Shown: positions 849 through 56,170 of the stretch, one piece after another
Position numbering within the stretch: the first letter of the stretch is position 1
How the letters are laid out: every line of letters begins with the position of its first letter
Assembly: GCA_964616495.1 (NCBI GenBank)
Contig: CAZTRF010000001.1
Span: 3,759 to 66,884, forward strand
Direction of reading: 5' to 3'
Length of the DNA: 63,126 nt
Source of the DNA: an uncultured Muribaculaceae bacterium
Lineage (GTDB): Bacteria > Bacillota_I > Bacilli_A > RF39 > UBA660
Program-made: the position numbers and the translations under genes
The notes under the pieces: model-generated
The model's input: the letters and a program-made list of their open reading frames with translations, nothing else
Told to the model about the DNA's origin: nothing
Databases searched by the model: none

Positions 849-850
849 TT

Positions 851-1231: not shown

Positions 1232-1235
1232 ATTT

Positions 1236-2583: not shown

Positions 2584-2612
2584 GAAACTTGCCAAATTTA
2601 TAGTAAAAACAT

Positions 2613-2641: not shown

Positions 2642-2647
2642 TATCAT

Positions 2648-3046: not shown

Positions 3047-3048
3047 TA

Positions 3049-3354: not shown

Positions 3355-3356
3355 TT

Positions 3357-3644
3357 ATGAAATTTTTAGAATTAAATCTTCAATTATTTGCTCACGTTAA
3401 ATCTCAAGGTTCTACACAAAATGGTAGAGATTCTGCTGGTCGTAGATTAGGAGCTAAAGCAGCTGATGGACAAACCATTAAAGCTGGTTCTATTATATAT
3501 AGACAAAGAGGGACCAAGATTTATCCAGGAAATAATGTAGGAATGGGTAAAGATCATACTTTATTTGCTTTAGTAGAAGGCGTAGTAAAATTTGAAAGAT
3601 TAGGAAGAGATAAGAAAAAAGTAAGTGTTTATCCTACAAAATAA
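3357..3644 (+). CDS. rpmA: 50S ribosomal protein L27 with N-terminal Prp-cleaved extension
   Basis: The N-terminus [26 protein letters not shown] carries the LQLFA propeptide cleavage motif. The core reads GRRLGAK...[24 protein letters not shown]. Confidence 0.95.
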
Positions 3645-3656
3645 ACACTTTTTTTA
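3624..3656 (+). terminator. Rho-independent terminator after rpmA
   Basis: The stem AGTGTTTAT/ATAAACACT has an 8-nt loop and is followed by T7. The left arm lies in the last rpmA codons. Confidence 0.7.
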
Positions 3657-3676
3657 TTACTTAAAAAGATCTTGAG

Positions 3677-6518
<2,842 letters not shown>

Positions 6519-6519
<1 letters not shown>

Positions 6520-7265: not shown

Positions 7266-7268
7266 TTG

Positions 7269-11151: not shown

Positions 11152-11152
11152 T

Positions 11153-13484: not shown

Positions 13485-13516
13485 ACTCAAACCAATTAAT
13501 TGGTTTGGGTCTTTTT
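13485..13516 (+). terminator. Intrinsic terminator/attenuator immediately upstream of the short RSH gene
   Basis: The 11-bp stem ACTCAAACCAA/TTGGTTTGGGT (one G-U pair) has loop TTAA and is followed by CTTTTTG. Only 16 nt separate it from ATG 13533. Confidence 0.65.
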
Positions 13517-13532
13517 GTTAGGAGTGATAGTA

Positions 13533-30681: not shown

Positions 30682-32529
30682 ATGTTACCAGAGTTTTTAA
30701 GAAATAGAAAAATTTTTATTCTTGGTGCTATAGCCAGTACAATTGTTTTGGCATTAGGTCTTTCTTATGCCTTCTTTTCACGTGAAAGCTTGTTAGGAGA
30801 AACAAGCAATAATACGATAAATATTAATACGATAAGTAGTGGAAGTATTAGTCAATCATTTACGGCAACTTATGATAATGCTAGTAATGAGATTATGACA
30901 GGTATTTTAAATTTAGACACTATTAGTTATCGTAAGTTATCAAAATTTTATGTAGAAAATGAATATCCAGATTCTTTAGATATTTCAATTAATTGGGCCT
31001 TTGTTACAAGCACATTAATTCAAAGTGATAGTTCTTATAATTTATATGAATGTAGTCAATCTAATTATGAAAATGCGACTATATCAAATATAAGTACAAA
31101 TTGTACTTTGATAAGTCCATCAACCGGTAATTATTTACCAAATACTGGAGAATCTTCTAAATTGCAAAGCACTAATGAAATAAGTATTAGTGCAAATACA
31201 ACAAAGTATTATGCAGTCTTAGTTACAATAGGTGTGTCTAATAACACAAGAAGTTTCCAAGGAATAATTAAAGTAAAGGATCGTTTAACTCATGTTTTAA
31301 CCCTAGATTTAAATGGGGGAACAATAAATACGGCTATATCAATGGATTTAAAAAATGGCGATAGTGTAACAATTCCAAATCCAACAAAGACCGGTTATAC
31401 ATTTGGCTCATGGAATTTAACTGTAGGTTTAGATAGTACCCTAGTATCATCAACTTTTACTATGGGAACAACCGATTCGACTTTACAAGCAATATGGGTG
31501 GCTAATACATATACAGTGACTTATAATTGTAATGGTGGCACTGGTGGTAGCACTGCAAATAGTATTCACACTTACGATGTGTCTAAAAGTTTAACAACTA
31601 ATGGATGCTATAAGCTTACTGCAGGCAGTGGTGGAATGGTTTATTATCTGAAGGGGTGGGCGACAACTTCAACAGCAACAACTCCAAACTACACAAACGG
31701 ACAGAGTATACTAAATTTAACATCAATTGGCAATGATACAATTAATTTATATGCAGTTTGGAGTGCTTTATTTAGTTATTCTACATCATATTTAGTATTA
31801 GATGATTATGCCAATACTGGTATTGCAGGTGATTGGCGGATTAAACTATTAACTAATGGAATTTTTACTTCTTTAGCTAATAACTCGATTGACGTATTTT
31901 TAGTTGGCGGAGGAGGCGGCGGAGCAAATTCTGGTAGTAAAGCAAGTAGTAGTGAAGGAATAGGTGGCGGTGGCGGAGGAGGCTATACAAATACAACGTC
32001 TGTTTTCTCTTTATCTGGAAATACCGATTATGCTGTTGTCGTTGGAGCTGGCGGTTCAAATGGAAATCCAGGCTTAAATGGAGGAAGTTCTTCATTTGGT
32101 AACTTGTCTGTACAAGGTGGAGAAGGCGGATGCCGAAAGACAAACAATTGTGGTGGAGATGGTGGTTCTGGAGGGAGTTCTTATTATGGAGCAGGTGGAA
32201 GCAATGGAAGCAATGGTGCTAATTTCACAACAACGCGCGGAATTGGACAAGGAACTACAACTTGTGAATTTGGACAAGGCTTATTAGGATCTGGTTGTAA
32301 TACTGGAGTAACTCTTTACGCTGGAGGTGGATCAGCAGGTACTTGGAATGCATCAGCCTTAGCTGGAGGATTAGGTGGTGGTGGTAGTGGTGGAGCATCA
32401 AATGCTAGCGGTAGTGCTGGTACTGTCAATACTGGTGGTGGTGGTGGCGGTGGCGGAGGTAACGATGGTGGAAATCCTAGCGGAGCAGCTGGTGGATCAG
32501 GTATTGTCATTATTAGAAACGCTAGATAA
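30682..32529 (+). CDS. Secreted surface protein: SipW/TasA-type signal + TasA-like N-domain + Listeria-Bacteroides (Flg_new) repeats + glycine-rich C-terminal domain
   Basis: The signal reads ...IVLALGLSYAFFS, compared with the camelysin/TasA motif GGTFAYFSD. Flg_new repeats are LTLDLNGGT...PTKTGYTFGSWN and YTVTYNCNGGTG...YLKGWA. The last 230 aa or so are Gly-rich (VFLVGGGGGGANSG...GGSGIVIIRNAR). The protein is paralogous to 47147-49759 over the first 290 aa or so. Confidence 0.75.
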   Translation: MLPEFLRNRKIFILGAIASTIVLALGLSYAFFSRESLLGETSNNTININTISSGSISQSFTATYDNASNEIMTGILNLDTISYRKLSKFYVENEYPDSLDISINWAFVTSTLIQSDSSYNLYECSQSNYENATISNISTNCTLISPSTGNYLPNTGESSKLQSTNEISISANTTKYYAVLVTIGVSNNTRSFQGIIKVKDRLTHVLTLDLNGGTINTAISMDLKNGDSVTIPNPTKTGYTFGSWNLTVGLDSTLVSSTFTMGTTDSTLQAIWVANTYTVTYNCNGGTGGSTANSIHTYDVSKSLTTNGCYKLTAGSGGMVYYLKGWATTSTATTPNYTNGQSILNLTSIGNDTINLYAVWSALFSYSTSYLVLDDYANTGIAGDWRIKLLTNGIFTSLANNSIDVFLVGGGGGGANSGSKASSSEGIGGGGGGGYTNTTSVFSLSGNTDYAVVVGAGGSNGNPGLNGGSSSFGNLSVQGGEGGCRKTNNCGGDGGSGGSSYYGAGGSNGSNGANFTTTRGIGQGTTTCEFGQGLLGSGCNTGVTLYAGGGSAGTWNASALAGGLGGGGSGGASNASGSAGTVNTGGGGGGGGGNDGGNPSGAAGGSGIVIIRNAR

Positions 32530-35579: not shown

Positions 35580-36977
35580 GTGAAAGTAGCATTATTAGGA
35601 ATAAATGATAAAAAACATATTAAAGAACAAATTAAAATATTATCAGCTGCCGGAAGATTATCAAGATTTAAAGGAAATGTTAGTGAAGTATTAGAAATAT
35701 GTAATGATTATGATAAAAATTTAAATTTTATTAAAAGAGTTATTGGAATGGGCCATGAATCTATTACTGATCATGACTATTTAGTTTTTTCAATTATTGA
35801 TGTAACACCAATAATTGAGCAAACAATTATTGAAGAAAGATTATGCTCATTTACAATCAAATCAAGACGGGAAGTAGACTTTAGCAAAGCTGGATTTTAT
35901 ACGCCCATCTTTAGAGATAAATTTGGTAAACCAATAAATAATCAAGATAAATGGAAAATGAAATATCGCAATCATATGAAATATTTATTTAAGAGCTATA
36001 GTAAATTATTAGAAAAAGGTATTAATAAAGAAGATGCCCGATTTATTCTTCCATACTCATATCATAGTAATATTATTATGGGCGTTGATGCTCATATTTT
36101 GAAAAATTTAATTATTAGGTTTACCAAAGGTAAAGAAAGTAGAATAGCAGAATTAAAAGAGTTTGGGGAAAAACTACTTAAAATTGCTACTAAAAGAACC
36201 CCTTATTTAATAGAATTAATCGAAAAGGAAATTCCAAATTATGAGGCAGAAAAATTTATTGATAGTAAAATTAAAGATAAAGATTATAAAATAGTACCAA
36301 ATGTTACACTTTTAAGCTATACTTCTAATGTCGATGAAACTATATTTGTAACCTATTTAATGCAACATTATCAGTATGATTATAAAAAAGCTTTGGAAAT
36401 ATATCATGGTATTTTAAATGAAAATAAAGATATATTAGAAAAGTGGATTAAATTAATAGGCGAGTCTTATGAAAAAGAAGTTTTAACAGCTATTAATTTT
36501 AGATTTCAAATACCTTTATCCTTAGCTGTTTTAACTCATTTATCTCGTCATCGAACACATGATATTATTGTCCCAGATTTTGTTCCAATTCATAATTTAA
36601 TGGCTTATAAAACTCCAGAATCGATTAATAAGAATTGCAAAAATGAATATGATCAAATATATGCTAATAACAATAAAATATATGAAGAATTTAAACAAGC
36701 GGGCATTATGGCTGAAGATTTAATTTATTTTCATTTAAGTGGTAATATGGTGAATGTTTTAACTAATATGAATGGGAAAGATATACATTGGATTCTTCAT
36801 TTAAGAGAATGTACTAAAGCTCAATGGGAAATTAGGAGTGTGGCTCAAAGTATTCATCATGAAATAAGTAAAGTATCAAAATATTTTCCAATGATTTTAG
36901 GACCCACTTGTATAACTAAAGGTTTCTGCCCTGAAGGCAAAGAATCATGTGGTAGAATAAAAAACATTAAAAAGTAG
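35580..36977 (+). CDS. Double-length ThyX-like (flavin-dependent thymidylate synthase family) protein
   Basis: 465 aa. The N-half has GHESITDHDYLVFSI...EERLCSFTIKSRRE, with the ThyX RHR motif degenerated to EER. The C-half has LTHLSRHRTHD, an intact RHR motif. GTG start after a GGAGG RBS. Confidence 0.5.
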   Translation: MKVALLGINDKKHIKEQIKILSAAGRLSRFKGNVSEVLEICNDYDKNLNFIKRVIGMGHESITDHDYLVFSIIDVTPIIEQTIIEERLCSFTIKSRREVDFSKAGFYTPIFRDKFGKPINNQDKWKMKYRNHMKYLFKSYSKLLEKGINKEDARFILPYSYHSNIIMGVDAHILKNLIIRFTKGKESRIAELKEFGEKLLKIATKRTPYLIELIEKEIPNYEAEKFIDSKIKDKDYKIVPNVTLLSYTSNVDETIFVTYLMQHYQYDYKKALEIYHGILNENKDILEKWIKLIGESYEKEVLTAINFRFQIPLSLAVLTHLSRHRTHDIIVPDFVPIHNLMAYKTPESINKNCKNEYDQIYANNNKIYEEFKQAGIMAEDLIYFHLSGNMVNVLTNMNGKDIHWILHLRECTKAQWEIRSVAQSIHHEISKVSKYFPMILGPTCITKGFCPEGKESCGRIKNIKK

Positions 36978-36997
36978 TAGAAATATACTACTTTTTT
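36970..36997 (+). terminator. Rho-independent terminator
   Basis: AAAAGTAGTA/TACTACTTTT stem with a 6-nt loop and a T-run. It overlaps the stop codon. Confidence 0.65.
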
Positions 36998-37055
36998 TAT
37001 TCTAATTATGATATATTTATATAAGAAAAAATAACCATAAAAAGGAGTGAGTGAT

Positions 37056-38225
37056 ATGAGAAAAATATTACAAAGTATAGGATTATTTTTAATTGCTTTT
37101 ATCATTGCTATTCCTGGAGTTTTGGCTGATAGTATATCAACTTCAATCTCAGGAGCAAGTGAAATCGAAGCTGGAGAGGAGTTTACTTTAACCTTTAAAG
37201 CAACCAGTGGTACTAACATATGGGGACTTACTGCTAAACTCAACTATGATAGCAGTAAACTATCAATAGTATCAAGTAGTGCTGGTAGTGGGTTTAATTT
37301 AACTTTAGGTGCCAATATTGTTATTGATGCTACTAGTGGAGTTAATGCCCCTTTTATTATCTGTACTATTAAATTTAAAGCTTTGACAGGCTTTGTAGCT
37401 AATGAATCAACTACTGTGTCTCTTTCAAATGTTCAAGGCTCAGATGGAAATGTTGATATTAATGGTAGTGGTTCATCTAAAATTATAAAAGTTGTTCCAC
37501 CAAAATCAAGCAATAACTATTTAAGCGGTTTAGCAGTTGATGTTGGGACAATAAAATTTAATAAAGCAACTAATTCTTACACTATAGTAGTTGAAAACGC
37601 TGTAACTACGGCTAACATTACAGCTACTGCTGAAGATGCTACCGCTAAAATAAGTGGAACTGGATCAAAGCAATTAAGCGTATATACCAATACTTTTAGT
37701 ATCGTTGTAACAGCTGAAAATGGAACCAAAAGAACATATAAAATCTATATAAAAAGAAAAGATCAAGATGGAAATACTGCCAAAATAAGTAGTGATAATT
37801 TTTTAAAAGAATTAACTATTACAGGTTACAACATTGACTTTAATAAGGCTACTACTGAATATAGCATAGAAGTAGAAAATGATGTTGAAGTACTAGAAAT
37901 AATAGCTAGTGCTAATGATAGTGGAGCTACTGTTAATGTTATAAAGCCAGATGCTTTAGTTACCGGTGAAAATATTATCACAGTTGAAGTAACTAGTAAA
38001 AGTGGTGAAAAAGCCACTTACACTATTAAAGTAAATAAAAAAGAAAAACAAGTAGATCCGGAACCAATAGTGGATGATAAAAAAGAAGAAGAAAAAGAAA
38101 ACAAAGATACTTCTTTCAGTCATACAAAGTGCTATATATTTATTGGAGTGTTAGGAGTTTTATTTGTTGCATCATTTATATTAAATATCTTATTCTATAA
38201 AAAAATAAAAAATAGAGGTGTTTAA
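37056..38225 (+). CDS. Membrane-anchored cohesin-domain protein with two cadherin-like beta-sandwich (Cadg) modules (mini-scaffoldin/anchor)
   Basis: Signal peptide ...IPGVLA|DS. The cohesin-like module (nt 37128-37502) reads ISGASEIEAGEEFTLTFKA...GLTAKLNYDSSKLSIVS...ICTIKFKA. The two Cadg modules read NNYLSGLAV...YTIVVEN...ITATAEDATAKISG...IVVTAENGTKRTYKIYIKR and NFLKELTI...YSIEVEN...ASANDSGATVNV...VEVTSKSGEKATYTIKVNK. A K/E-rich linker and a C-terminal TM anchor follow. ATG 37056 lies 8 nt after an AAAGGAG. Confidence 0.65.
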   Translation: MRKILQSIGLFLIAFIIAIPGVLADSISTSISGASEIEAGEEFTLTFKATSGTNIWGLTAKLNYDSSKLSIVSSSAGSGFNLTLGANIVIDATSGVNAPFIICTIKFKALTGFVANESTTVSLSNVQGSDGNVDINGSGSSKIIKVVPPKSSNNYLSGLAVDVGTIKFNKATNSYTIVVENAVTTANITATAEDATAKISGTGSKQLSVYTNTFSIVVTAENGTKRTYKIYIKRKDQDGNTAKISSDNFLKELTITGYNIDFNKATTEYSIEVENDVEVLEIIASANDSGATVNVIKPDALVTGENIITVEVTSKSGEKATYTIKVNKKEKQVDPEPIVDDKKEEEKENKDTSFSHTKCYIFIGVLGVLFVASFILNILFYKKIKNRGV

Positions 38226-38228
38226 TAT

Positions 38229-41200
38229 ATGAAAAAAACATTCAAAAAACTAATTAGTTTAATAAGCATTATTTTAATGCTTTTTCCAGAATTATTTCCT
38301 TTTGTAGGAATAATGAAAGTTGATGCTGCTTTATATGAAGGACCAACTGTAATTGAAAATATTGATTTAAACTTTACAGATCATCAATCTCAAGACATTA
38401 CTCTTGGTGAGGGCGAAACATTTTCAAGCTGTTCTTCTGAATCACCTAGAATAGCATCAACTACGATATCAGCTGATAATAAGGTTTGTACTATAACTGC
38501 TTTATCTTACGGAATATCATCTGTTTATTTAAATATATATGCCGGTGGTAGCTATGAGAAAACAATATTTGTTAATGTTGATAACAATACTTTCTTAAAT
38601 AGCTTTTTAGATTCAATTCCTAATGAAATGACAATGACTTATCCCGAATATCAAAAATACATTCAAAATTATAGTCTAAATAGTAATAACCCAAATGATG
38701 TTAACGTTTATTTTGAAGAAAACTCTTTTGAAAATGGAACCTTCATAACTACAGCTGAAGTAACTGATAAAAATTATTACTATTTTAATAATGATGGTCA
38801 GGTTCACTATTACGAAAATGAGGACGATGCCACCATTTCTAAAGAAGTTCGTTTTAATATAATCGGCACGATGCTTTATGGTGACCTAGTTCATGCTTCA
38901 TTATCTTATTTATCAAAGATTGATTTTGTAACAAATACTGAAGTTAATTATGATAATTTAATATTTGTAAGCAGTGATAATAATATCTTTACTGTTGATA
39001 ATAAAGGCTATGTTAAGGGTGTATCTCTCGGCAATGGATATGTTTATGTATATGATAAAGAATCTGATGTGTATTACAAATTAGAGGTAAATGTTCAAGC
39101 TGGTTTTAATAATAATCCTGATTTCTCAGCTATTACTAGTTATTTTAACAATCAAACATTTGATGTTAATATAAGTACTAGTACGATAGCCAAAAAAGCT
39201 ATAAAATATACAGAAGGTGGTACATATACTATTGACCCAGCATCTTATTTTACAGCACTATATAACGAGCATTTTACACCAATATATGGTAGCAATATGC
39301 CTTATTTTAATAGTTTATCTTGTACCAACAATGTTTGCTCAGGTAGCGGTAGTTATTATTATGGCTCATCAGGATCTATCGATATAACAAATGCGACCTT
39401 TAATTTTAATGGAATAAAATTATTAGAAACTTATCTTATAGCTGATCCAAGTTCAAGTTTTGATTTAAACATTATAAAGTTAGGGGCAAGTGCTGATTCA
39501 GAAATCAGCTTTACTTATGATAGCGATTATTTAACTGAAAATGCTAACGGAACATTTTCTGCATTAAAAACGGGAGTTACAGAAGTAACCGCCAGTGATG
39601 GAACTTATCAGAGTACTGCTAAAATGTTTATTTCACCAACATATACTGATATTGCCCCAATTACAAATTATTTTAATAATTTATCGTCTATTACCTTGAC
39701 TTATCCTGTAACAGTTTTTAATGATTTAAATTTTTTATCAAAAGCTGTTAAAAACTATCTTACTGAAAACACACCTGAAAGTAATGGATATAAAAATTTA
39801 TATGAATATGATGTTAAATGCATAAATACTAATATGTGTCAAATCAAAAAGAATGAATATTATGATGCTGAGCATCTATATCCATCAGGTTTTTATTTAT
39901 CTTCTTTCAATTCTAAGATAATTCGCATAAATTATTCATTGGCTGAAGCTACAGAACTTACAGCTGCTGTTAATGAATTAAATAATATTGATAGTAAAAT
40001 TAATATTGCTTTTGAAGATATAGAAAAAGCTTATTATAGCTGTGATGCTTCAGACACTTGTTTTAACGAAAAAATTATAGAGGCAGCAGAATTGCAATTT
40101 AATTCATCAATGTTAAGTTTAAGCGACTTCGTTACAATTGAACAAATACCTGATATTTACTATACTATGGAAGGAAAAGTTCAGCTATCACTATATGGTG
40201 AAGTATTGTATAGCAAGCCAGTAGTAATAACTTATAATAAAATTCATACTCTTTCTCATTTATTAGAAAGAACCGAAGAATATAAAATAAATAATTATAA
40301 AGAAAAAATAGTTGATATGAGTACAACTCTTAATAATTATTCATTAACCACTAATGATATTACCATTACCTTAGTAAGAGATAAAATTTATAATATTGCA
40401 TATCATAATGATAATGAGCATGAAATCACATATAATTTTATGATCGATCAAAAAGAAAAAGTAAAAATAACAGGATTATCATTTGGGTCAAATTTTCCAG
40501 GTAAAAATATGGAAATTGGTGATGAAGAAGTTCTATATTATTCTGTTTATCCGGAAAATGCTAATTATGGTACCGTAGAATTTGTAAGTGCAGATCCAAC
40601 AATTATATCGGTTAATAATACTACTAGAACTATTACTGCTCTAAAAAAAGGTTATACAACTATTTATCCAAAGATAAATGGTAAAGTCCAAAAACATAGT
40701 GGTTATCTATCATGTGTAGATACCACCTATGAAGATATTCTTAATGATATGTTAGAAGCTAATGGCCCAAGTAATGTTACTATAACTTATTATGATTTAC
40801 TAAACTTTGATTTGATAAGTGCCATAACTAATGAAGTAAGTAATCAAATAAATAATAATTTAAATAGGCCGTTAAGTTCAACGGTTGAAGTTGAAGAGAT
40901 TGGAACAACTGGAACATATAAATATCGTTTAGTTTATTCAGAATATATTTACGGATCATCTGAATCCTCTTTTAGTTATTCTCAATATAAAAATATTACC
41001 TATGATAAAAAAGGAATAAGTACTACTGATAACGAATATAAAATAGATATTAATGAAATAGTGGATACTAAATTATCATTTAGTGAAGCTGATAATATAA
41101 ACTTAAATATTAGAATTGAAGATCCAAGTATTGTTTCATATAGTAATAGTGGGATTTTAAAAGGACTTAAAACAGGCAAAACTTATATTTCTATTTATGA

Positions 41201-42875
41201 TAAGTTTGATAAATACTATAATGATATTTATGTTACTGTAGATGGGGATACTCTTTATACAAATATTATTGATGAGTTAAATGATATCGATACAGTCATA
41301 CTTCCTAGCTCAGCAATTGCTAATACGTATGGTTCATATAATCAGATTTTTGATACAGTACTTTTAAGAAAAGTCGATAAATATGATTTATTTAATACCC
41401 ATACTACAATATGCAATAATGTAAATAGTACTTGTACTTTATCACTTAACTATGAATTAAATGGTCAAGAAGAAGAATTTTCAAAAACATATGCTTTTTT
41501 AATACAAGGTTTAACTATAGAAAACAATGACATTGAATTAGCAACTGGAGAGTCATATACATTAGAATATACTTCAATTCCTAATACTGACCCAGTGACT
41601 ATAACCTCTTTAACACCAGAAACTTGTAGTATTGTTGATGATGAGGTATTGGCTTTACAACGAGGAGGATGTTACGTAAAAATTAAAAATAGCACTGATT
41701 TTGATGTTTTAAAAGTAGCCATTGATAAAGATGATATTATTGCCGAATATCAAGATTTACTTGACTCGCTTCCTAATGAAATAACTTTAAAAATAGAAGA
41801 GTATAATGGTGATATAGGTATGGAAGATTATAGTTATATGGCTGCATATTCAATGCTCTTTAAATTAGCTATTGTTGATTTATTAGACTTAAACGAAAGT
41901 GAAATCACCAATTTTTATCCAAGCTTTTTTGATTTAAATGAAGATGATGGAACAATGCCAGTTTCTTTATATCCTAATTTATCATACCATGATGAAATTA
42001 GTGGTGAATATTATGGAGTTAATATTAGTCCAGTTGAAAAAGCGGAACCAATAAAAATATTATACGATAATGATTTTATTGCTGATCAAGAAGAGGTTGA
42101 TGCTATAGTTGCCACTTTGCCTAAAGAATATCGTCTAAGTATTGATCAAATAATTAAATATCGTCTATTGGGTGGACAGATGATTGATTATACAGACTTT
42201 TCTAATATCTTAGATGCTTATCCCGATTATGAATTACAATATGATATGGCCGGAGCTGGTGGAAGTATGGCTATGGTAGGGCAAAATTATGCTTATACTG
42301 TTTTAAAAGATGGATATGTAGTGGCTTTTGGAAGTGTTGATGTTTATATGTATTTTGAAGATGAAAACACCACGGTTATGACACAAGAAGAATACATTGA
42401 ATATTTAAAAGGCCTTGTTACTGATGAATATATTTCTGTTCAAAATGAAATATCAAATTTAACAACTTTAGCTGTTAGAATGGATATTAGCGAGCCAACT
42501 GAATTATTAGAAGATTCAATATATGGCTTAGGAGATACAACCCCGGAAGTTACTGTTACTTATATTAGAAACAGTGCTGACCCAACAGTTGATACTTACG
42601 ATATTCGAGTTGAAGATATTGCCTTTAGATTAACGGTTGGTAAAAAAATAGCTCAAGGAGCAACTTATGATGCTAGTTATCTAATAGGAGATTTAACTGG
42701 AGATAATGTTATTTCAACAACCGACTTGGTCAAACTAAGAAGACATTTAGCGGGAATTGAATCAGTTACTGGTAATAAACTAAAAGCCGCTGATATTAAT
42801 CGTGATAATAATGTTACAACAACTGACTTGGTCAAACTAAGAAGACACTTAGCGGGAATTGAATCAATAGCTTAA
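38229..42875 (+). CDS. 1548-aa secreted multi-domain protein with Big_2 Ig-like domains and a C-terminal type-I-like dockerin
   Basis: It has an N-terminal signal/anchor. Big_2-like segments include VEFVSADPTIISVNNTTRTITALKKGYTTIY and FVSSDNNIFTVDNKGYVKGVSLGNGYVYV. The C-terminus GDLTGDNVISTTDLVKLRRHLAGIE...ADINRDNNVTTTDLVKLRRHLAGIE forms the two Ca-binding F-hand repeats of a dockerin. Confidence 0.7.
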   Translation: MKKTFKKLISLISIILMLFPELFPFVGIMKVDAALYEGPTVIENIDLNFTDHQSQDITLGEGETFSSCSSESPRIASTTISADNKVCTITALSYGISSVYLNIYAGGSYEKTIFVNVDNNTFLNSFLDSIPNEMTMTYPEYQKYIQNYSLNSNNPNDVNVYFEENSFENGTFITTAEVTDKNYYYFNNDGQVHYYENEDDATISKEVRFNIIGTMLYGDLVHASLSYLSKIDFVTNTEVNYDNLIFVSSDNNIFTVDNKGYVKGVSLGNGYVYVYDKESDVYYKLEVNVQAGFNNNPDFSAITSYFNNQTFDVNISTSTIAKKAIKYTEGGTYTIDPASYFTALYNEHFTPIYGSNMPYFNSLSCTNNVCSGSGSYYYGSSGSIDITNATFNFNGIKLLETYLIADPSSSFDLNIIKLGASADSEISFTYDSDYLTENANGTFSALKTGVTEVTASDGTYQSTAKMFISPTYTDIAPITNYFNNLSSITLTYPVTVFNDLNFLSKAVKNYLTENTPESNGYKNLYEYDVKCINTNMCQIKKNEYYDAEHLYPSGFYLSSFNSKIIRINYSLAEATELTAAVNELNNIDSKINIAFEDIEKAYYSCDASDTCFNEKIIEAAELQFNSSMLSLSDFVTIEQIPDIYYTMEGKVQLSLYGEVLYSKPVVITYNKIHTLSHLLERTEEYKINNYKEKIVDMSTTLNNYSLTTNDITITLVRDKIYNIAYHNDNEHEITYNFMIDQKEKVKITGLSFGSNFPGKNMEIGDEEVLYYSVYPENANYGTVEFVSADPTIISVNNTTRTITALKKGYTTIYPKINGKVQKHSGYLSCVDTTYEDILNDMLEANGPSNVTITYYDLLNFDLISAITNEVSNQINNNLNRPLSSTVEVEEIGTTGTYKYRLVYSEYIYGSSESSFSYSQYKNITYDKKGISTTDNEYKIDINEIVDTKLSFSEADNINLNIRIEDPSIVSYSNSGILKGLKTGKTYISIYDKFDKYYNDIYVTVDGDTLYTNIIDELNDIDTVILPSSAIANTYGSYNQIFDTVLLRKVDKYDLFNTHTTICNNVNSTCTLSLNYELNGQEEEFSKTYAFLIQGLTIENNDIELATGESYTLEYTSIPNTDPVTITSLTPETCSIVDDEVLALQRGGCYVKIKNSTDFDVLKVAIDKDDIIAEYQDLLDSLPNEITLKIEEYNGDIGMEDYSYMAAYSMLFKLAIVDLLDLNESEITNFYPSFFDLNEDDGTMPVSLYPNLSYHDEISGEYYGVNISPVEKAEPIKILYDNDFIADQEEVDAIVATLPKEYRLSIDQIIKYRLLGGQMIDYTDFSNILDAYPDYELQYDMAGAGGSMAMVGQNYAYTVLKDGYVVAFGSVDVYMYFEDENTTVMTQEEYIEYLKGLVTDEYISVQNEISNLTTLAVRMDISEPTELLEDSIYGLGDTTPEVTVTYIRNSADPTVDTYDIRVEDIAFRLTVGKKIAQGATYDASYLIGDLTGDNVISTTDLVKLRRHLAGIESVTGNKLKAADINRDNNVTTTDLVKLRRHLAGIESIA
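42687..42872 (+). other. Dockerin module (two F-hand repeats)
   Basis: See above. The two repeats share a block of about 50 nt that is nearly identical at nucleotide level (about 42718-42768 and 42823-42873). Confidence 0.7.
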
Positions 42876-42902
42876 AAGAGTGGGGAAGCCCATTCTTTTT
42901 TA
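42876..42902 (+). terminator. Rho-independent terminator
   Basis: AAGAGTGGG/CCCATTCTT stem (one G-U pair), loop GAAG, followed by T6. Confidence 0.75.
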
Positions 42903-42926: not shown

Positions 42927-42955
42927 TAGACAAAACGCCCATTAAAGCCTATAAT
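42927..42955 (+). promoter_or_regulatory. Promoter of the hydrolase-queA-amidoligase-ATP-grasp operon
   Basis: TAGACA (42927-42932), 17-nt spacer, TATAAT (42950-42955). Confidence 0.55.
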
Positions 42956-42980: not shown

Positions 42981-43667
42981 ATGGTTTCAAAAGAACATCT
43001 AAAAGAATTAGAAAGTACTTTTAGTCAAAATGAAAAACATGGTAATCTTTTAGTACCTAGTCATAATTTTACTAAAGGGCTTGGAAATATTATATTGACT
43101 GCTCCCCATACCGTTATTACAAGCAAAATTAAAAATGGAATTGAAACTATAAAAGAAAATGAATCTTATACTGGGGCTATTACTTTAATGTGTGGTGAAA
43201 TTGCTGGATGTCATACCATGACCCGTAACAATTATAATGATGTTACTGCTATCACTAATTTTTATAATGAATATTTACAAGATTATATTTCTTCTTATGG
43301 AATAGTTGGTCATTTAGATATTCATGGTGCTGCCAGGACTAATCCTTATGATGTATCAATAGGTACTAATCATCTTGAACATATTTTTTACGATCAACAG
43401 GTTTACGAAATTGTTAATGATGGATTTAATGATTATGGAATTAATAATGTGGTTTGGAATTCTAAATTTCAAGCCTCTACTAAAGCAACTTTATGTCGTC
43501 AGGTATTCTTAGGTAAAATGATTCATACTCTTCAACTAGAGATAAATAAAAATTATCGCGATTTAAATGATTTTGAGAAAATGGTAGCTCTTATTAAGGC
43601 CATTTCTGAAATAGCTATAAATTTAAATGAGCATTTATCTTCCGGTGGTTTAGGATATGGCAGATAA
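42981..43667 (+). CDS. Metal-dependent amidohydrolase-like protein (N-formylglutamate amidohydrolase / PghP poly-glutamate hydrolase-like fold, tentative)
   Basis: The conserved pattern APH...ENESYTG...HLDIHGA...GTNH...LQLEINKNYR (H, E, H, E candidate ligands) is shared with the C-terminal domain of the next gene. The family assignment is from memory only. Confidence 0.4.
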   Translation: MVSKEHLKELESTFSQNEKHGNLLVPSHNFTKGLGNIILTAPHTVITSKIKNGIETIKENESYTGAITLMCGEIAGCHTMTRNNYNDVTAITNFYNEYLQDYISSYGIVGHLDIHGAARTNPYDVSIGTNHLEHIFYDQQVYEIVNDGFNDYGINNVVWNSKFQASTKATLCRQVFLGKMIHTLQLEINKNYRDLNDFEKMVALIKAISEIAINLNEHLSSGGLGYGR

Positions 43668-45330
43668 TAGTTTATTAAATATTAATACCTATGATTATCC
43701 ATTAGACAAAAACTTGATTGCTCAAACGCCTATAAAAAATCGCGATCAATCAAAATTAATGGTTGTCAATCGTAAAAATGGTGATATTTCTCACCATATT
43801 TTTTCTGATATTATAAATTACTTAAATAAGGGCGATTGCCTAGTACTAAATGATACTAAAGTAATACCCGCCAGACTATTTGGAGTAAAAGAAGCAACAA
43901 AAGCTCATATTGAAATACTTTTATTAAAAGATAATGGTAATAACTTATGGGATTGCCTTATTAGAAATTCCAGAAGATTAAAACAAGAAGATATTATTTC
44001 TTTTGGTGAAGGATTATTAAAAGGGAAAGTCATTTCTAAGGCCTCTGATGGGGTAATAAAACTTCAATTAATATATGATGGCATTTTATATGAAATACTT
44101 GATAAACTAGGAGAAATGCCCTTACCGCCATATATTCATAAACATTTAAAAGAACAAGATCGTTATCAAACGGTATATGCTAAAAATATTGGTAGTGCTG
44201 CAGCTCCTACTGCCGGATTACATTTTACAAAAAAATTACTTGACGATATTGAAAAAAAAGGTATAATAATTTGCTACGTCACATTGCATGTTGGTTTAGG
44301 TACTTTTAGACCAGTTGAAGAAGATAATATTTTAAATCACCATATGCATAGTGAATATTATGAAATGACTTCGGATGTGGCAAAATTATTAAATGATGCT
44401 AAAGAAAGTCATCATAAAATTATTGCTGTAGGAACAACCTCTACTAGAGTATTAGAAACCGTCTATAGTAAATATAATTCCTTTAAAGAATCTTTTGGAA
44501 ATACCGATATTTTTATCTATCCGGGATATACCTTTAAAGCAATTGATTCTTTAATTACTAATTTTCATTTGCCAAAATCAACTTTAATGATGCTAGTAAG
44601 TGCTTTTAGTAGTAAAGATATTATTATGAATGCTTATAGAGAAGCTATGAATAAAAAATATCGTTTCTTTTCATTTGGTGATGCCATGCTTTTGGATATT
44701 CCTAATTATGAAAAATTGTTAGACGAGTTTAAAAATCAAAAGATTTATTTAAAAAAAGATAATTTTAAAATTTTAAAAGGAACCATTCCTATAATGATAT
44801 CAGTTCCTCATAGTAAAAAGCATTTACGAGATGGAATGGTTAAAAATAATGAACATAATACAGCTAGAATTGCTAAACTATTATATTGTTTAACTAATTG
44901 TCATTTAATCTATGCCTATAAACAGGGAGATAATGACCATAACTATGATGAAAGTTCTAATTATAAAAAAAAGTTAAAAGCCTATATAAAAGAAAATAAC
45001 ATTAAGATATTAATAGATATTCATGGTATGGCTGATTCTTATGACATCGAGTTAGGAACTAACCATTATCAAAATATTTTTAATGATAAAGATATTATAA
45101 ATAATATTAAAGATATATTTTATAAAAATAATATAAAGAATGTATTTGTCGACCGAAAATTTAAAGCTAAAAGACATAATACTATTAGCAATTACATAAA
45201 TAAAGAATGTAATATTAAAACTATTCAACTAGAAATAGGCCCTAAGTATCGTAAAATCAAATTAAGACCAAAATCATTTAATAAAATTATAATAAGTTTA
45301 GAAGAAATCATAAATAAGAATAAGGAGTGA
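43657..45330 (+). CDS. queA: S-adenosylmethionine:tRNA ribosyltransferase-isomerase QueA fused to a C-terminal amidohydrolase-like domain
   Basis: Residues 1 to about 347 are canonical QueA (LIAQTPIKNRDQSKLMVV, LVLNDTKVIPARLFG, PLPPYI, AAPTAGLHFT, GTTS.RVLE, NFHLPKSTL, RFFSFGDAMLL). Residues from about 365 to 557 repeat the pattern of 42981-43667 (VPH...NNEHNTA...LIDIHGM...GTNH...IQLEIGPKYR). Confidence 0.85.
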   Translation: MADNSLLNINTYDYPLDKNLIAQTPIKNRDQSKLMVVNRKNGDISHHIFSDIINYLNKGDCLVLNDTKVIPARLFGVKEATKAHIEILLLKDNGNNLWDCLIRNSRRLKQEDIISFGEGLLKGKVISKASDGVIKLQLIYDGILYEILDKLGEMPLPPYIHKHLKEQDRYQTVYAKNIGSAAAPTAGLHFTKKLLDDIEKKGIIICYVTLHVGLGTFRPVEEDNILNHHMHSEYYEMTSDVAKLLNDAKESHHKIIAVGTTSTRVLETVYSKYNSFKESFGNTDIFIYPGYTFKAIDSLITNFHLPKSTLMMLVSAFSSKDIIMNAYREAMNKKYRFFSFGDAMLLDIPNYEKLLDEFKNQKIYLKKDNFKILKGTIPIMISVPHSKKHLRDGMVKNNEHNTARIAKLLYCLTNCHLIYAYKQGDNDHNYDESSNYKKKLKAYIKENNIKILIDIHGMADSYDIELGTNHYQNIFNDKDIINNIKDIFYKNNIKNVFVDRKFKAKRHNTISNYINKECNIKTIQLEIGPKYRKIKLRPKSFNKIIISLEEIINKNKE

Positions 45331-47146: not shown

Positions 47147-49759
47147 ATGTGGAAAGAACTTTCTAAAAAAACTAAAATGATCATTATTGGAATATTGTCT
47201 ATTACCATTCTTTTAGTAGTGGGAATAACCTATGCCTATTTTACAGCAGCCACCGTAGGAGGAAACGCCAGTGCCAATTCAATCCAATTACTAACTGGTA
47301 CTCACGGAAATATAACTGTTAATTATCTTAATGGGAATGGCCTTATTAATATGAATAATGTTGATTTAAAAGAAAATGAAAAAGGAACCATAAAAAAAGA
47401 AATGGTTAAGTTTAGTGTAAATTATCCCGGCAGTGAAGAAGAAAATATATCAATTAATTGGAAAGAAGTAACTAATAACTTTTGTCAATATCAACTGGGA
47501 AATATATGTACTAATAACGATGAAGACAACTATGTTGGAGATGAAATATATTTTGATTTATATGAGTGCAATACTCAAAGTGATTTACAAAATGCCACTA
47601 CAACTATTTTGAATAATTGTACAAATATAACCAATGAAAATAATAGTGCGCCTTTAACCGGGGAAGAAAAACAATTACAAAATGTAGAAGTTATCCCAAT
47701 AATTAATGAAGTTAAATATTATATAATGATTTTAAATATTAATAATCTAAATGTTTTGCAAGACTATAATCAAGGAAAAGCCTTTCAAGGAAGAATTGAA
47801 GTTGTCCTTCGTAATGAGTTTGTTTTAACTTTAAACTTAAATGGAGGGGTTAGTGAAGATTTATTAACTCAAAACATTCGAACTGGTGAAACCATTATTC
47901 TTACCGAGCCAACTAAAGAAGATTATACTTTTATCGAATGGAAAGTAAATGTAGGAGGAACCGATGCTTTATTATCAGGAAATACTTTTACTATGGGTAA
48001 AGAAAATACAACCTTAAAAGCAATTTTTGCAAAAACCATCACTGAATTTTCAGCTAATAACTTAATTACTTATGAAGAATTTAATCCAGAAGCAGATGGT
48101 TATTATAAAGTAGAACTATGGGGTGCAAAAGGTGGAAATTCTAATTATACTGGCGGAGCTGGAGCTTATGTTAGTGGTAGCATTGAAATGAAAGAGGGAG
48201 AAACCTACTATATTTATATTGGGGGTTTAGGTAACCTCACAAGTACCGGTGGATATAATGGTGGAGGAAGAGGGCAAAGCAAGAATCCATCTGGAATGAG
48301 TGGTGGTGGTGGTGGAGCCACTGACATCAGGTACTTTGGTAACATAACCCCTTCGGCAGAGGAATTATTATGGAATTCTTCTTTAGGACTTAACTCTAGG
48401 ATTATGGTTGCTGGTGGCGGAGGTGGCGGTGGAAATAACGGTGACGGAATAAGTGGCAATGGTGGAGCTGGTGGAAATACAATTGGTGGAAGCGGAACTT
48501 CATCAGGTTCTGACTGTTGTGGAAATTCTGCAAATGCTAGTTATAATGGAAAAGGTGGTTCCCAAATTGCTGGGGGTAGTGGCGGTATGGCAGCTGGCAG
48601 TTTTGGTGTTGGAGCAATTGATTCTAATGTCAAAGGCGGTTCTGGTGGCGGTGGCTACTATGGAGGAGGCAGCGGATATTATGGCGGTGGCGGTGGCGGT
48701 GGTAGCTCATATATAAGTGGCTCTTTAGGAAGTATAGCTATTACTGCATCTGACAATCGTACCGCTAAGTGTAGTGCTGAAGTTGCTGCATCAGATTTAA
48801 CTTGCTCTTTCCACTATAGTGAAAAAGCATTTTACTTAACCACTATGAATCAAGGAACGAATTCAGAAGCGGGAAAGGCAAAGATAACTTATGTAGGAAA
48901 ACAATTAAATGTTCCAAGTTATAATATTAGTACTACCACAACTTCCAGTAGTCCTTTAATTATCGATTACATGAATACTTATCAAGAAATAAACGTCTTG
49001 TCTTCAGGATATTATAAAATAGAATTATGGGGAGCAAGTGGAGCAACATATAGCACAAGCTGGGCGCCTTCTGGAAAAGGTGGCTATACGCAAGGCACAA
49101 TATACATGGAGCAGGGAGAAAAATACTACGCTTTTGTTGGAAGCGAAGGACTAAGAAGAAATACCATTAATGGTGGTTATAATGGGGGTGGCGAGGCCTT
49201 AAGTAACTATGCTGCTGGTGGTGGTGGAGCCACTGATATTAGGTACTTTAGTACAACACCGTCTATTGAACAATTACAATGGAATTCCCCTTTAGGATTA
49301 AATAATCGTATTATGGTAGCTGGTGGTGGCGGTGCTGGTGGCTATAATGGAGATAATAAATATGGTACTGGTGGGGCTGGTGGAGGATTAACCGGTGGTA
49401 CAGGAACTATTGGAATTTTAAATTCGACCTATTGGGTTGTAGAAGCAGATTCTTCTAGCAATTGGACAAGAGGTACCGGAGGAACACAAAATGCTGGAGG
49501 AACCAATTATCCAGTAGGAGGCTTTGGTGTTCCAGGAACTCCAGGAGGAACAACATATTCTGGGGCTGGTGGTGGTTATTATACTGGTGGTGGCGGTTAT
49601 TATGGTGGTGGTGCTGGTGGCGGATCTTCATATATTAGTGGCCATTCAGGATGCACAACCCATTTAAATGGCAAAACTTTTGCTTCTACTGAAACTACTT
49701 CAGGAGTAAAATCTGGGAATGGTCAAGCCAAAATAACATATATTGGAAATAGTCTTTAA
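47147..49759 (+). CDS. 870-aa secreted protein: SipW/TasA-type signal + TasA-like N-domain + Flg_new repeat + two tandem ALK/LTK-type glycine-rich (PF12810-like) domains
   Basis: Signal ...LLVVGITYAYFTAA. Flg_new repeat LTLNLNGGV...PTKEDYTFIEWK. The first Gly-rich copy (about 48035-48905) reads YYKVELWGAKGG...GGAGAYVSG...GETYYIYIGG...GGYNGGGRG...GGGGGATDIRYF...RIMVAGGGGGGG...KAKITYVG. The second copy (about 48950-49756) reads YYKIELWGASG...GGYNGGGEA...GGGGATDIRYF...RIMVAGGGGAGG...QAKITYIG. Confidence 0.8.
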   Translation: MWKELSKKTKMIIIGILSITILLVVGITYAYFTAATVGGNASANSIQLLTGTHGNITVNYLNGNGLINMNNVDLKENEKGTIKKEMVKFSVNYPGSEEENISINWKEVTNNFCQYQLGNICTNNDEDNYVGDEIYFDLYECNTQSDLQNATTTILNNCTNITNENNSAPLTGEEKQLQNVEVIPIINEVKYYIMILNINNLNVLQDYNQGKAFQGRIEVVLRNEFVLTLNLNGGVSEDLLTQNIRTGETIILTEPTKEDYTFIEWKVNVGGTDALLSGNTFTMGKENTTLKAIFAKTITEFSANNLITYEEFNPEADGYYKVELWGAKGGNSNYTGGAGAYVSGSIEMKEGETYYIYIGGLGNLTSTGGYNGGGRGQSKNPSGMSGGGGGATDIRYFGNITPSAEELLWNSSLGLNSRIMVAGGGGGGGNNGDGISGNGGAGGNTIGGSGTSSGSDCCGNSANASYNGKGGSQIAGGSGGMAAGSFGVGAIDSNVKGGSGGGGYYGGGSGYYGGGGGGGSSYISGSLGSIAITASDNRTAKCSAEVAASDLTCSFHYSEKAFYLTTMNQGTNSEAGKAKITYVGKQLNVPSYNISTTTTSSSPLIIDYMNTYQEINVLSSGYYKIELWGASGATYSTSWAPSGKGGYTQGTIYMEQGEKYYAFVGSEGLRRNTINGGYNGGGEALSNYAAGGGGATDIRYFSTTPSIEQLQWNSPLGLNNRIMVAGGGGAGGYNGDNKYGTGGAGGGLTGGTGTIGILNSTYWVVEADSSSNWTRGTGGTQNAGGTNYPVGGFGVPGTPGGTTYSGAGGGYYTGGGGYYGGGAGGGSSYISGHSGCTTHLNGKTFASTETTSGVKSGNGQAKITYIGNSL

Positions 49760-50931
<1,172 letters not shown>

Positions 50932-54022: not shown

Positions 54023-56170
54023 ATGGAAAAAAATATAACAATTGATGATTTAATTTCTAAAATGGATGGTTTAGTAGAATCTAAAAAAGAATTAGATGAT
54101 ATTAATGAGGCTTATCTGTTTGCTAAAGAAAGTCACAAAGGGAAAAAAAGAAAAACTAACGAGGAATTTATTACTCATCCTTTGAATGTGGCTTATATTT
54201 TAGCTGGTTTAAATGTTGACACCAAAACAATAGTAGCTGCTTTATTACATGAAACAATTAATCATGGTTCTTCTACTTATGAAAGCATCTGTGATACATT
54301 TGGGAGTGAAATAGCTAATATAGTTTTATCTATATCTAAAATTAACAAATTAGAATTAACCGATGATTCAGAATCATCAAGTATTTATTTAAGAAAAATA
54401 TTGGTAGGACTTTCAGAAGATGTTCGAGTTTTGTTTATAAAATTAGCCGATCGCCTTCACAATATGAGAACTGTTTATGCGTTAACACCGGAAGAACAAA
54501 AGCAAAAGGCCAACGAAACAATGAAAGTTTTAATTCCCATTGCCCATCGTTTAGGTATTAATAAAATTAAAAGTGAATTAGAAGACCTATGTCTAAAATA
54601 TTTAAAACCTGATGTTTATGCCGATATTGAAAAAGAATTGACTAAAGGTAGAGCCGAATTAAATGAAGTTTTAAATGAGATGAAAGAAAATATTTCTAAT
54701 ATTTTAATTGATTATGGGCTTCGTTTTGAAATAAAAGGCCGCGTCAAAAGCATTAATAGTATATATGAAAAATTGGCTAAAGGGCGTAAATTTAGTGATA
54801 TATATGATATTTTAGCTTTAAGAATATTGCTTCCTAAAGAAAATGATTGCTATTTAGCGGTAGGTCTTATCCATGCCAAATATCGTCCCATTCCTAAAAG
54901 ATTTAAAGATTATATTGCTATGCCTAAAGAAAATATGTATCAAAGTCTTCATACAACTGTCTTTGGGATAGATGGTTATTTATTTGAAATTCAATTACGT
55001 ACATATGAAATGGATGAAATAGCCGAAAAGGGGATTGCTTCTCATTGGTCATATAAAGAATCTGGTACTCAAAAAATTCAAAATATGATGGAACAAAAGC
55101 TAGAAATGTTCAGAAATCTAATTGAAGCAAATAGTGATACTTTAAATGATGAAACCCTTACTAATATCTCTAATGAATATATTAGTAATTTAATTTATGT
55201 CTATACTCCTAAGGGAGATGTCGTAGAGCTTCCCGAAGGGGCAACACCAATAGACTTTGCCTATCGAATTCACTCAGGAGTAGGAGATACAATGGTTGGA
55301 GCCTTAGTTAATGATCAAATAGTTCCTCTAGATCATAGTCTTTCTGATGGCGATATAGTTAAAATTAGAATTGATAAAAACTCTCATCCTAAAGAAGATT
55401 GGTTAAAAATTGTTAAAACCACTCAAGCCAAAGATAAAATAAAAGCTTATTTTAGTAAACAAGATAAAATTGAATATATAAAAAAAGGGGAGCTTTTATT
55501 AGATAAGGAACTTAAGAAAAGAAAAATATCAGCTAATAGTATTTTAGATGAGGAAGCTTTAAACAAAATATTTAAAGGTTTAAAATTAAAAGATTTAGAC
55601 GATTTATATTTAGCTATTGGAACATTAAGATATTTACCTAGTTATATTATTGAATACAATTCAAAAGAAAAAGATGAGTTAAAAGATCCTTTACTTATGA
55701 GAAATAGAGGAACTATTCTTAAAGAAAAAATTTATAATGGCAATATTATAGTAAGTGGCTGTGATGATATAAAAGTAACTATTGCTAATTGTTGCAAACC
55801 AGTTAAAGGAGACACCATAGTAGGATATATTACAAAGGGTCGAGGAGTAAGTGTTCATTTAAAAGATTGTCCTAATATTAGTAGTAACGAAGACCGCTTT
55901 ATTGATGTTAAATGGAATGAAGAAAATGATAACTTTTATTATACTGATGTTACTATTGAAACTGATTCTTTAAGTGATCATTTAATGGAAATAATTAGTA
56001 AGACTGGCCAAAAAGAAGTATTTATTGAAAGCATTAATAAAAAAGAAATAGAAAATGGAATTAATTATACTTTAACGGTCAAACTTAAAACTTTAAAAGA
56101 ACTAAACAGTTATCTTCTAGACTTAGAAAAACTAAACTATATTAAAAAAGTAGGGAGGACAAATAAGTGA
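54023..56170 (+). CDS. relA: Full-length RelA/SpoT homolog with intact synthetase and degenerate hydrolase site
   Basis: Synthetase motifs are GRVKSINSIYEKL, DIYDILALRILL, ENMYQSLHTTV, FEIQLRT and ASHWSYKE. TGS (VYTPKGDVVELPEGATPIDFAYRIH), ZFD (CCKP...GYIT.GRGVSVH..DC) and ACT-like domains are present. The HD-domain motifs read LLHETINHG and KRKTNEEF in place of LLHD..EDT and R.SGEPY. Confidence 0.9.
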   Translation: MEKNITIDDLISKMDGLVESKKELDDINEAYLFAKESHKGKKRKTNEEFITHPLNVAYILAGLNVDTKTIVAALLHETINHGSSTYESICDTFGSEIANIVLSISKINKLELTDDSESSSIYLRKILVGLSEDVRVLFIKLADRLHNMRTVYALTPEEQKQKANETMKVLIPIAHRLGINKIKSELEDLCLKYLKPDVYADIEKELTKGRAELNEVLNEMKENISNILIDYGLRFEIKGRVKSINSIYEKLAKGRKFSDIYDILALRILLPKENDCYLAVGLIHAKYRPIPKRFKDYIAMPKENMYQSLHTTVFGIDGYLFEIQLRTYEMDEIAEKGIASHWSYKESGTQKIQNMMEQKLEMFRNLIEANSDTLNDETLTNISNEYISNLIYVYTPKGDVVELPEGATPIDFAYRIHSGVGDTMVGALVNDQIVPLDHSLSDGDIVKIRIDKNSHPKEDWLKIVKTTQAKDKIKAYFSKQDKIEYIKKGELLLDKELKKRKISANSILDEEALNKIFKGLKLKDLDDLYLAIGTLRYLPSYIIEYNSKEKDELKDPLLMRNRGTILKEKIYNGNIIVSGCDDIKVTIANCCKPVKGDTIVGYITKGRGVSVHLKDCPNISSNEDRFIDVKWNEENDNFYYTDVTIETDSLSDHLMEIISKTGQKEVFIESINKKEIENGINYTLTVKLKTLKELNSYLLDLEKLNYIKKVGRTNK

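Follow-up and report, generated by a model that had tools for sequence, protein, structure and literature searches.

A candidate cohesin-dockerin operon for non-covalent surface tethering in an uncultured bacterium, and its relatives across the Bacillota

Two adjacent genes were analyzed in a 63,126-nucleotide stretch of DNA (63 kb; "the window" throughout) on contig CAZTRF010000001.1, from an uncultured bacterium that is deposited as Muribaculaceae and placed by GTDB in lineage RF39 of the Bacillota. Gene A encodes a short protein with one cohesin module and a C-terminal transmembrane helix; gene B, which follows on the same strand, encodes a giant secreted-type protein that ends in a dockerin. 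We consider it probable that the pair is a bicistronic operon by which A tethers B to the cell surface through a non-covalent joint. The observations behind this reading are the identities of the modules, the topology signals, the layout of the operon, an adjacency that is conserved across genomes, the co-variation of the two modules, and a homologue in which cargo and anchor stalk are fused. The features of gene A are as follows.

37056..38225, + strand: gene A, 389 amino acids, a cohesin anchor with type-I membrane topology signals
37056..37127, + strand: signal peptide, residues 1-24, ending PGVLA/DS (hydrophobicity scan)
37128..37502, + strand: cohesin module, residues 25-149 (PF00963, family profile, AlphaFold2, Foldseek)
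37503..38039, + strand: stalk of two cadherin-like β-sandwich domains, approximately residues 150-235 and 243-328 (PF12733)
38040..38129, + strand: linker rich in lysine, glutamate, and aspartate, residues 329-358 (57% K/E/D)
38130..38222, + strand: C-terminal transmembrane helix, residues 359-381, with the basic cytoplasmic tail KKIKNRGV

The N-terminal module of gene A is a cohesin. An earlier sequence-only reading had made its proposal depend on this module scoring as one, and residues 25-149, taken in isolation, matched PF00963 with 30.3 bits (cutoff 24.1; E-value 5e-7; profile positions 2-136 of 139), with the fold evidence in agreement. The same profile matched 36 of 37 homologous modules from the family, and a profile built from the family's cohesin modules retrieved only cohesins at the top of a PDB search, including ScaB, the Archaeoglobus fulgidus structure 2xdh, and Clostridium perfringens NagJ. 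The AlphaFold2 model of the module was all-β with a predicted local distance difference test score (pLDDT) of 97; when compared with known structures by Foldseek, ranks 1 to 18 were all cohesins (TM-scores of 0.74 to 0.83, E-values down to 2e-8), led by Ruminococcus flavefaciens ScaC (5lxv, TM-score 0.83). Model and matches together display the nine-stranded β-sandwich (jelly-roll) that defines the cohesin fold.

Pfam applied to full-length gene A returned Cadherin-like PF12733 in two stretches (67.8 bits); an NCBIfam scan of the full-length protein and a single-sequence PDB search with it gave no match. The only hydrophobic segments are residues 1 to 24, with cleavage after VLA, and residues 359 to 381, and neither an LPXTG motif nor a lipobox was found in a scan of the sequence. 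These signals fit a type-I membrane protein. The order of parts given in the sequence-only reading (signal peptide, one cohesin, two cadherin-like modules, K/E linker, C-terminal transmembrane anchor) was thus borne out by Pfam, by AlphaFold2 with Foldseek, and by hydrophobicity. The partner gene has the following features.

38229..42875, + strand: gene B, a 1548-amino-acid cargo with a secretion signal
38229..38327, + strand: signal peptide, about residues 1-33, ending MKVDA/A, the sole hydrophobic segment of B
38319..42014, + strand: about seven tandem units of ~175-180 amino acids, residues ~31-1262 (hhalign self-hits, Pfam)
42015..42686, + strand: non-repeated C-terminal region, residues ~1263-1486 (~220 amino acids), conserved among giant-cargo homologues
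42687..42863, + strand: type-I-like dockerin, residues 1487-1545 (PF00404 and PDB sequence matches)

The dockerin was recognized by PF00404 (Dockerin_1) at residues 1487-1541 of 1548, with 39.2 bits where the cutoff is 22.9. It lies at the C terminus of a protein with a secretion signal and consists of two repeats of ~22 residues, each with a 12-residue EF-hand-like loop followed by a helix: DLTGDNVISTTD-LVKLRRHL and DINRDNNVTTTD-LVKLRRHL. The duplicated F-hand reported at the end of B therefore reads as it had been quoted. The loops carry acidic or polar calcium ligands at positions 1, 3, 5, and 12, and both repeats have T-T at positions 10/11 and R-R at positions 17/18, which we take to be the type I recognition pattern; the best matches among solved structures are likewise type I dockerins. 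At the DNA level, the helix-coding segments of the two repeats (TTDLVKLRRHLAGIES; 42717-42764 and 42819-42866) are identical at 46 of 48 nucleotides, and the DNA of the calcium loops differs. This suggests recent intragenic gene conversion that keeps the dockerin halves symmetric, and because the identity fits a maintained symmetry, a dual binding mode is possible.

The body of gene B is a repeat array. Self-comparison with hhalign gave matches at offsets of about 178, 359, 540, 715, and 890 residues, and each unit is composed of a Big_2-like immunoglobulin (Ig) domain followed by an α/β half. Pfam reported Big_2, Big-like, and the C-terminal Dockerin_1. One unit (residues 926-1095) was modeled with AlphaFold2 from an alignment of the paralogous repeats of B itself, yielding a β-sandwich and then an α/β half at a pLDDT of 69; Foldseek returned generic tandem-Ig matches with TM-scores of at most 0.33. 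No function was assigned to gene B because of this low pLDDT and the generic character of the matches. The non-repeated C-terminal region had no match in Pfam or the PDB, and a profile of the giant-cargo homologues matched only dockerin and Big_2 in the PDB. B had been described as Ig-domain-rich and adhesin-like: the Ig repeats were upheld (Big_2 and Big-like, about seven units), and the resemblance to adhesins follows from architecture only, so that our suggestion of an adhesin or surface fibril is a guess.

Pfam, the PDB profile search, and a motif scan detected no glycoside hydrolase, carbohydrate-binding module (CBM), enzyme, or sortase signal in gene B, and the earlier statement that A and B lack glycoside hydrolase, CBM, and sortase signals was confirmed by the same means. 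The motif LPxT[GASN] is absent from both proteins, as it is from the last 60 residues of all 120 gene A homologues listed. Sortase anchoring was rejected on these grounds.

The two genes are closely coupled, with these signals around them.

36973..36998, + strand: AT-rich hairpin AGTAGTA-GAAATA-TACTACT plus T-run that overlaps the stop codon of thyX (seen by direct reading of the sequence)
37043..37047, + strand: AGGAG ribosome-binding site of gene A, 8 nucleotides before its ATG
within the end of gene A, + strand: GAGGTG ribosome-binding site of gene B
42878..42901, + strand: hairpin GAGTGGG-GAAG-CCCATTC with T6, 3' of gene B (read from the sequence)

Gene A runs on the + strand from the ATG at 37056 to a stop at 38225 (389 amino acids), and gene B (38229-42875, + strand, 1548 amino acids) starts 3 nucleotides past that stop, as first reported. 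An in-frame GTG lies upstream at 37047; the ATG was taken as the start of gene A because AGGAG precedes it by 8 nucleotides and because public gene calls use it, namely independent calls on three metagenome contigs that carry an identical gene. The upstream hairpin is likely a terminator between thyX and the cassette, one that a G+C-based terminator scan missed, and the hairpin after gene B is likely the intrinsic terminator of a two-gene operon. A promoter-like TAGACA-17-TATAAT at 42927-42955 belongs to the gene downstream of B. Operon signals were read by eye, as a generic promoter and terminator scan was uninformative in this AT-rich DNA. With these three signals bracketing them (the thyX hairpin, the hairpin after B, and the downstream promoter-like site), A and B appear to form a bicistronic operon of their own.

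The window pair is no oddity of one genome; it belongs to a family of cassettes that is widespread in the Bacillota. The protein collection contains more than 500 homologues of gene A, almost all of them labeled "cadherin-like" or "hypothetical," and relatives are encoded by at least 500 stretches of DNA from GTDB species-representative genomes. Carriers include Erysipelotrichaceae, uncultured Bacilli, metagenome-assembled genomes labeled "Tenericutes," Candidatus Coprovivens, Oscillospiraceae, Agathobacter, Lachnospira, and Faecousia; a protein search added Alkalibacter rhizosphaerae (CP071444). Among the 120 homologues listed, an N-terminal hydrophobic segment was present in 114 and a C-terminal transmembrane segment in 113, the latter also in 77 of the 81 that bear a cohesin.

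Related loci were found by alignment of the cohesin and cadherin-like domains, and 79 fetched loci were scanned with a cohesin hidden Markov model (HMM) and an iterated dockerin HMM. Adjacency was counted in 70 loci from other genomes, 884 kb in all, with flanks of up to 8 kb on each side. A dockerin-ending open reading frame (ORF) abutted 57 of 74 cohesin-anchor ORFs on the same strand (77%), upstream of the anchor in 54 cases and downstream, which is the order in the window, in 3. Conversely, 57 of the 66 dockerin ORFs in the 884 kb were direct neighbors of a cohesin, against a background of 0.01 dockerin ORFs per kb. Pfam independently found Dockerin_1 in 44 of 47 neighboring cargos, and the dockerin was always at the extreme C terminus. 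In the window itself, which contains a single cohesin and a single dockerin, the pair has every part that defines the cassette: a signal peptide, an N-terminal cohesin, at least two cadherin-like domains, a C-terminal transmembrane segment, and a dockerin neighbor on the same strand. The commonest Pfam families identified in the 47 neighboring cargos were distributed as follows.

Big_2: 18 cargos
GH73 Glucosaminidase: 13 cargos
HL_N-beta: 9 cargos
Peptidase_S8: 8 cargos
Big_3: 5 cargos
Flg_new: 4 cargos
BspA-type leucine-rich repeats (LRR): 3 cargos
SH3_3: 3 cargos
RCC1: 2 cargos
Peptidase_C1: 2 cargos
Transglutaminase-like: 2 cargos

Two of the Peptidase_S8 cassettes illustrate the arrangement. 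In A. rhizosphaerae (L007, 7214-11623), the Peptidase_S8-dockerin gene (7214-9994) ends a few bases before the cohesin anchor (10001-11623), and in a second locus (L006, 7260-11647) such a gene lies upstream of the anchor and overlaps it. The A. rhizosphaerae cassette sits among transposase genes, beside a gene of the ParE toxin family and the small gene that adjoins it.

This cargo spectrum bears on whether the pair could be a remnant or minimal cellulosome, degrading carbohydrate in the manner of the ClcC/ClcD pair of Cellulosilyticum lentocellum. The closest solved relatives of the dockerin are indeed cellulosomal type I dockerins. Against this, neither A nor B has a glycoside hydrolase or CBM; the 25 Pfam families seen most often in the 47 cargos include no cellulase, xylanase, or CBM, and their sole glycoside hydrolase is the peptidoglycan-directed GH73; and A offers one cohesin, not a multi-cohesin scaffoldin. 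With a single cohesin in A and in the 63-kb window and no carbohydrate-active enzyme (CAZyme) or CBM, we rejected a cellulosome and regard this origin as extremely improbable.

Cohesin and neighboring dockerin also co-vary across the family. Their distance matrices were correlated (Spearman r of 0.64, Mantel), a value reached in 0 of 5000 permutations and one that is supportive, not decisive. Two cassettes within one genome were only 22 to 35% identical in both modules, and orthologous cassettes in different genomes were 71 to 91% identical. Genomes with two paralogous cassettes include ZNE14_Bin74 (L011 and L038), HGW-Firmicutes-10 (L008 and L054), and CAZLKF01 (L020 and L048).

Homologues of gene B were taken from neighbor genes in related loci and from an exhaustive HMMER search; word-indexed searches had returned only B itself, and nothing further for its C-terminal region. 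From 1.84 billion representative proteins, the exhaustive search recovered ~25 full-length relatives with identities of 22 to 29%, and at least 21 of the ~25 end in a dockerin. The giant cargo adjoins an anchor even where the gene order is flipped (the window, L004, L005, and L024 versus L013 and L016). Two relatives, P0134 (1703 amino acids) and P0141 (2024 amino acids), lack the dockerin and end instead in a linker and a transmembrane helix with a basic tail. P0134 is without a cohesin as well, and the part that precedes its linker shares 44% identity (E-value 7e-15) with the second of the two cadherin-like domains in gene A. By its sequence, P0134 is a natural fusion in which the cargo body is joined covalently to the anchor stalk. 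Such a fusion would be expected if the dockerin-cohesin contact were no more than the non-covalent joint of the same surface-anchored assembly.

Co-variation and fusion both point to an interaction, and they bear on a more skeptical reading in which the cohesin-fold module of A is a ligand-binding or structural β-sandwich, the dockerin is a calcium-stabilized terminal module, and A and B act independently. The cohesin score is only modestly over its threshold, the non-cohesin adhesin domain CLIPPER (9ifr) appears at Foldseek rank 19, and the binding of B by A is a prediction. Yet 18 cohesin structures rank above any other fold, and a 77% same-strand adjacency over very different cargos would be hard to explain without interaction. 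We therefore hold independent action to be very unlikely.

A further alternative is that the anchor is a shared hub: A would recruit several dockerin proteins whose genes lie elsewhere in the genome, or the dockerin of B would mainly bind another cohesin, and adjacency would reflect co-regulation only. Several relatives are arranged in a way that would suit a hub. Dockerin genes flank a single cohesin gene on both sides in L005 (830-8690), a dockerin-dockerin-cohesin array is present in L018 (1612-8751), and in L041, L044, L046, and L059 (~1-9700) a dockerin gene is followed by two successive cohesin-anchor genes. Dockerins are also similar between neighboring clades, and the inspected part of this genome is 63 kb only. 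Opposed to this are the single cohesin and single dockerin of the window, the behavior of cassettes as co-varying units that diverge from one another within one genome, and the P0134 fusion, which ties the cargo family of gene B to the anchor family of gene A. On balance a hub seems unlikely for the window pair, less so than independent action. The relatives with dockerins on both sides or in tandem nevertheless suggest that the anchor sometimes serves other dockerins. Accordingly, of the one-to-one tether originally proposed, the non-cellulolytic tether is supported by the module tests, the 57 of 74 adjacency, the co-variation, and the fusion, and a strict one-to-one pairing is not general in the family, given the dockerin-cohesin-dockerin and dockerin-cohesin-cohesin relatives.

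For the tether itself, the following sequence of events is proposed. Sec would export both A and B, and the signal peptides would be cleaved. A would be held in the cytoplasmic membrane by its C-terminal transmembrane helix, with the basic tail inside the cell and the single cohesin at the far end of a stalk formed by the K/E linker and the two cadherin-like β-sandwiches. The dockerin of B would then bind this cohesin in a calcium-dependent manner, probably in either of two orientations, and a ~170-kDa fibrillar Ig-repeat cargo would thereby be tethered to the cell. In the wider family, a homologous anchor is encoded beside the protein that it would display, be this an S8 or C1 protease or a GH73, LRR, RCC1, or Big_2 protein. 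Physical binding of B by A, its dependence on calcium, any exposure outside the wall, and the part played by B are all predictions from sequence.

Several points weigh against the proposed tether. Pfam did not report the cohesin on full-length gene A. The first calcium loop of the dockerin (DLTGDNVISTTD) is atypical in having T, not N or D, at position 3. No binding or catalytic domain was identified in gene B by the PDB profile search or Foldseek. With a stalk of two domains and a 30-residue linker, the cohesin may not clear a thick Gram-positive wall. No dockerin gene lay in the fetched flank of 8 of the 74 anchors, 3 of them at a contig edge, and 2 anchors had a dockerin gene ~1.9 kb away; 4 of 6 "distant" dockerin cases are the dockerin-cohesin-cohesin arrays described above. 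Finally, the co-variation of cohesin and dockerin could partly be inflated by shared phylogeny.

Cohesin-dockerin pairs are usually treated as a hallmark of the cellulosome. We see an even balance of chances that they are, beyond it, a general modular means of surface display in non-cellulolytic Bacillota, among them Erysipelotrichaceae, uncultured Bacilli, gut metagenome-assembled genomes labeled "Tenericutes," Oscillospiraceae, and Lachnospiraceae, with one monovalent membrane cohesin and its cognate cargo per cassette, mutually orthogonal specificities, and exchangeable cargo, dockerin, and anchor; the suggestion that these three parts are evolutionarily exchangeable comes from the P0134 fusion. 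If this is true, cohesin-dockerin display would stand beside sortase, S-layer homology (SLH), and LysM anchoring, and one cell could show several proteins independently, among them proteases, GH73 autolysin-like enzymes, and LRR or Ig adhesins. Because its anchors are labeled merely "cadherin-like domain-containing" or "hypothetical," the system is invisible to annotation. Should binding occur, a plug-and-socket tether would keep proteases, peptidoglycan hydrolases, and proteins resembling adhesins at the membrane of many uncultured Bacillota from the gut and the environment, with a bearing on adhesion to host or particles and on how autolysins and surface proteolysis are controlled. The pairs would also supply a panel of natural, possibly orthogonal cohesin-dockerin modules for protein engineering. 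As a named species with an S8 protease-dockerin and anchor pair, A. rhizosphaerae (CP071444) makes the idea directly testable.

The window has a G+C content of ~27%, with nearly all genes on the + strand, and the neighbors scanned with Pfam are mostly housekeeping genes. The pair had been placed between ruvB and queA, which is inexact: thyX (35580-36977) lies directly upstream, with ruvB two genes upstream of the pair, and a 228-amino-acid ORF (42981-43667) precedes queA downstream. ThyX has 465 amino acids with two Thy1/TIGR02170 stretches and looks like a flavin-dependent thymidylate synthase that has been doubled in length by tandem duplication. QueA (43657-45330) has 557 amino acids, of which residues 10-346 match Queuosine_synth, followed by a C-terminal extension of ~200 amino acids. 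The extension is weakly N-formylglutamate-amidohydrolase-like (PF05013, E-value 0.009) and is 29% identical to the 228-amino-acid ORF directly upstream (E-value 7e-18). A 285-amino-acid ORF without assignment and a RimK-type ATP-grasp gene lie 3' of queA.

The 63 kb also contain two queuine tRNA-ribosyltransferase (TGT) paralogues (5401-6519 and 49804-50931) and two RelA/SpoT-type genes (13500-14957, 485 amino acids; 54023-56170, 715 amino acids). Two further genes are likely to encode surface proteins: 30682-32529, with Flg_new repeats and Gly_rich_2, and 47147-49759, with Flg_new repeats and ALK_LTK_GRD at 246 bits. The latter gene is probably the cause of a local rise in G+C to 0.40 at 48 to 50 kb. 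The sole Rfam match in the window was a ribosomal protein L21 leader at 2658-2727 (RF00559, 40.7 bits).

Cohesins and dockerins outside cellulosomes are known from the NagJ/NagH toxin complexes of C. perfringens and from A. fulgidus, and a 2009 survey by Peer et al. reportedly established that such non-cellulosomal modules exist. The C. perfringens modules link secreted glycosidases to each other, not to a membrane anchor. The best structural matches of the gene A cohesin include the cohesins of NagJ (2jh2, 2w1n) and A. fulgidus (2xdh); by Foldseek, the fold of the gene A module comes nearest to ScaC of R. flavefaciens and to type I cohesins. Gene B in turn resembles the sortase-anchored stalk-repeat proteins that serve Gram-positive bacteria as fibrillar adhesins, in being long, built of tandem Ig-like units, and attached by its C terminus. 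It differs from them in that the attachment is predicted to be non-covalent, by dockerin and cohesin and not through LPXTG, in that no adhesive tip domain was identified, and in that its unit has an extra α/β half with no fold match.

A literature search, which was not exhaustive, found no description of a cohesin, cadherin-like, and transmembrane anchor beside a dockerin gene, and a two-gene cassette family with protease, wall-hydrolase, or adhesin-like cargo appears to be undescribed. A review of Gram-positive surface display covers cohesin-dockerin only in cellulosomes, with SLH anchors (PMC5817068). The anchoring scaffoldins of such systems (SdbA, OlpA, OlpB, and OlpC of C. thermocellum; ScaE of R. 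flavefaciens) share with gene A a cell-bound cohesin for a dockerin partner, a role that is predicted here. They are attached via SLH or sortase/LPXTG and dock scaffoldins or CAZymes (PMC5817068), whereas gene A has a C-terminal transmembrane helix without LPXTG, a cadherin-like stalk, one cohesin, and no CAZyme. Among published systems with an adjacent single pair, ClcC/ClcD of C. lentocellum comes closest: a protein with one cohesin and a protein with one dockerin, products of adjacent, co-transcribed genes, were shown to form a heterodimer (PMC13487519). There, ClcC combines CBM3, X2, and cohesin modules and has no anchor in membrane or wall, the GH5 cellulase is ClcD, and the target is cellulose (PMC13487519). 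Here, in contrast, the cohesin protein is a transmembrane-anchored stalk and the cargo is an Ig-repeat protein without a detected enzyme domain, with proteases and wall hydrolases as the cargos of its relatives.

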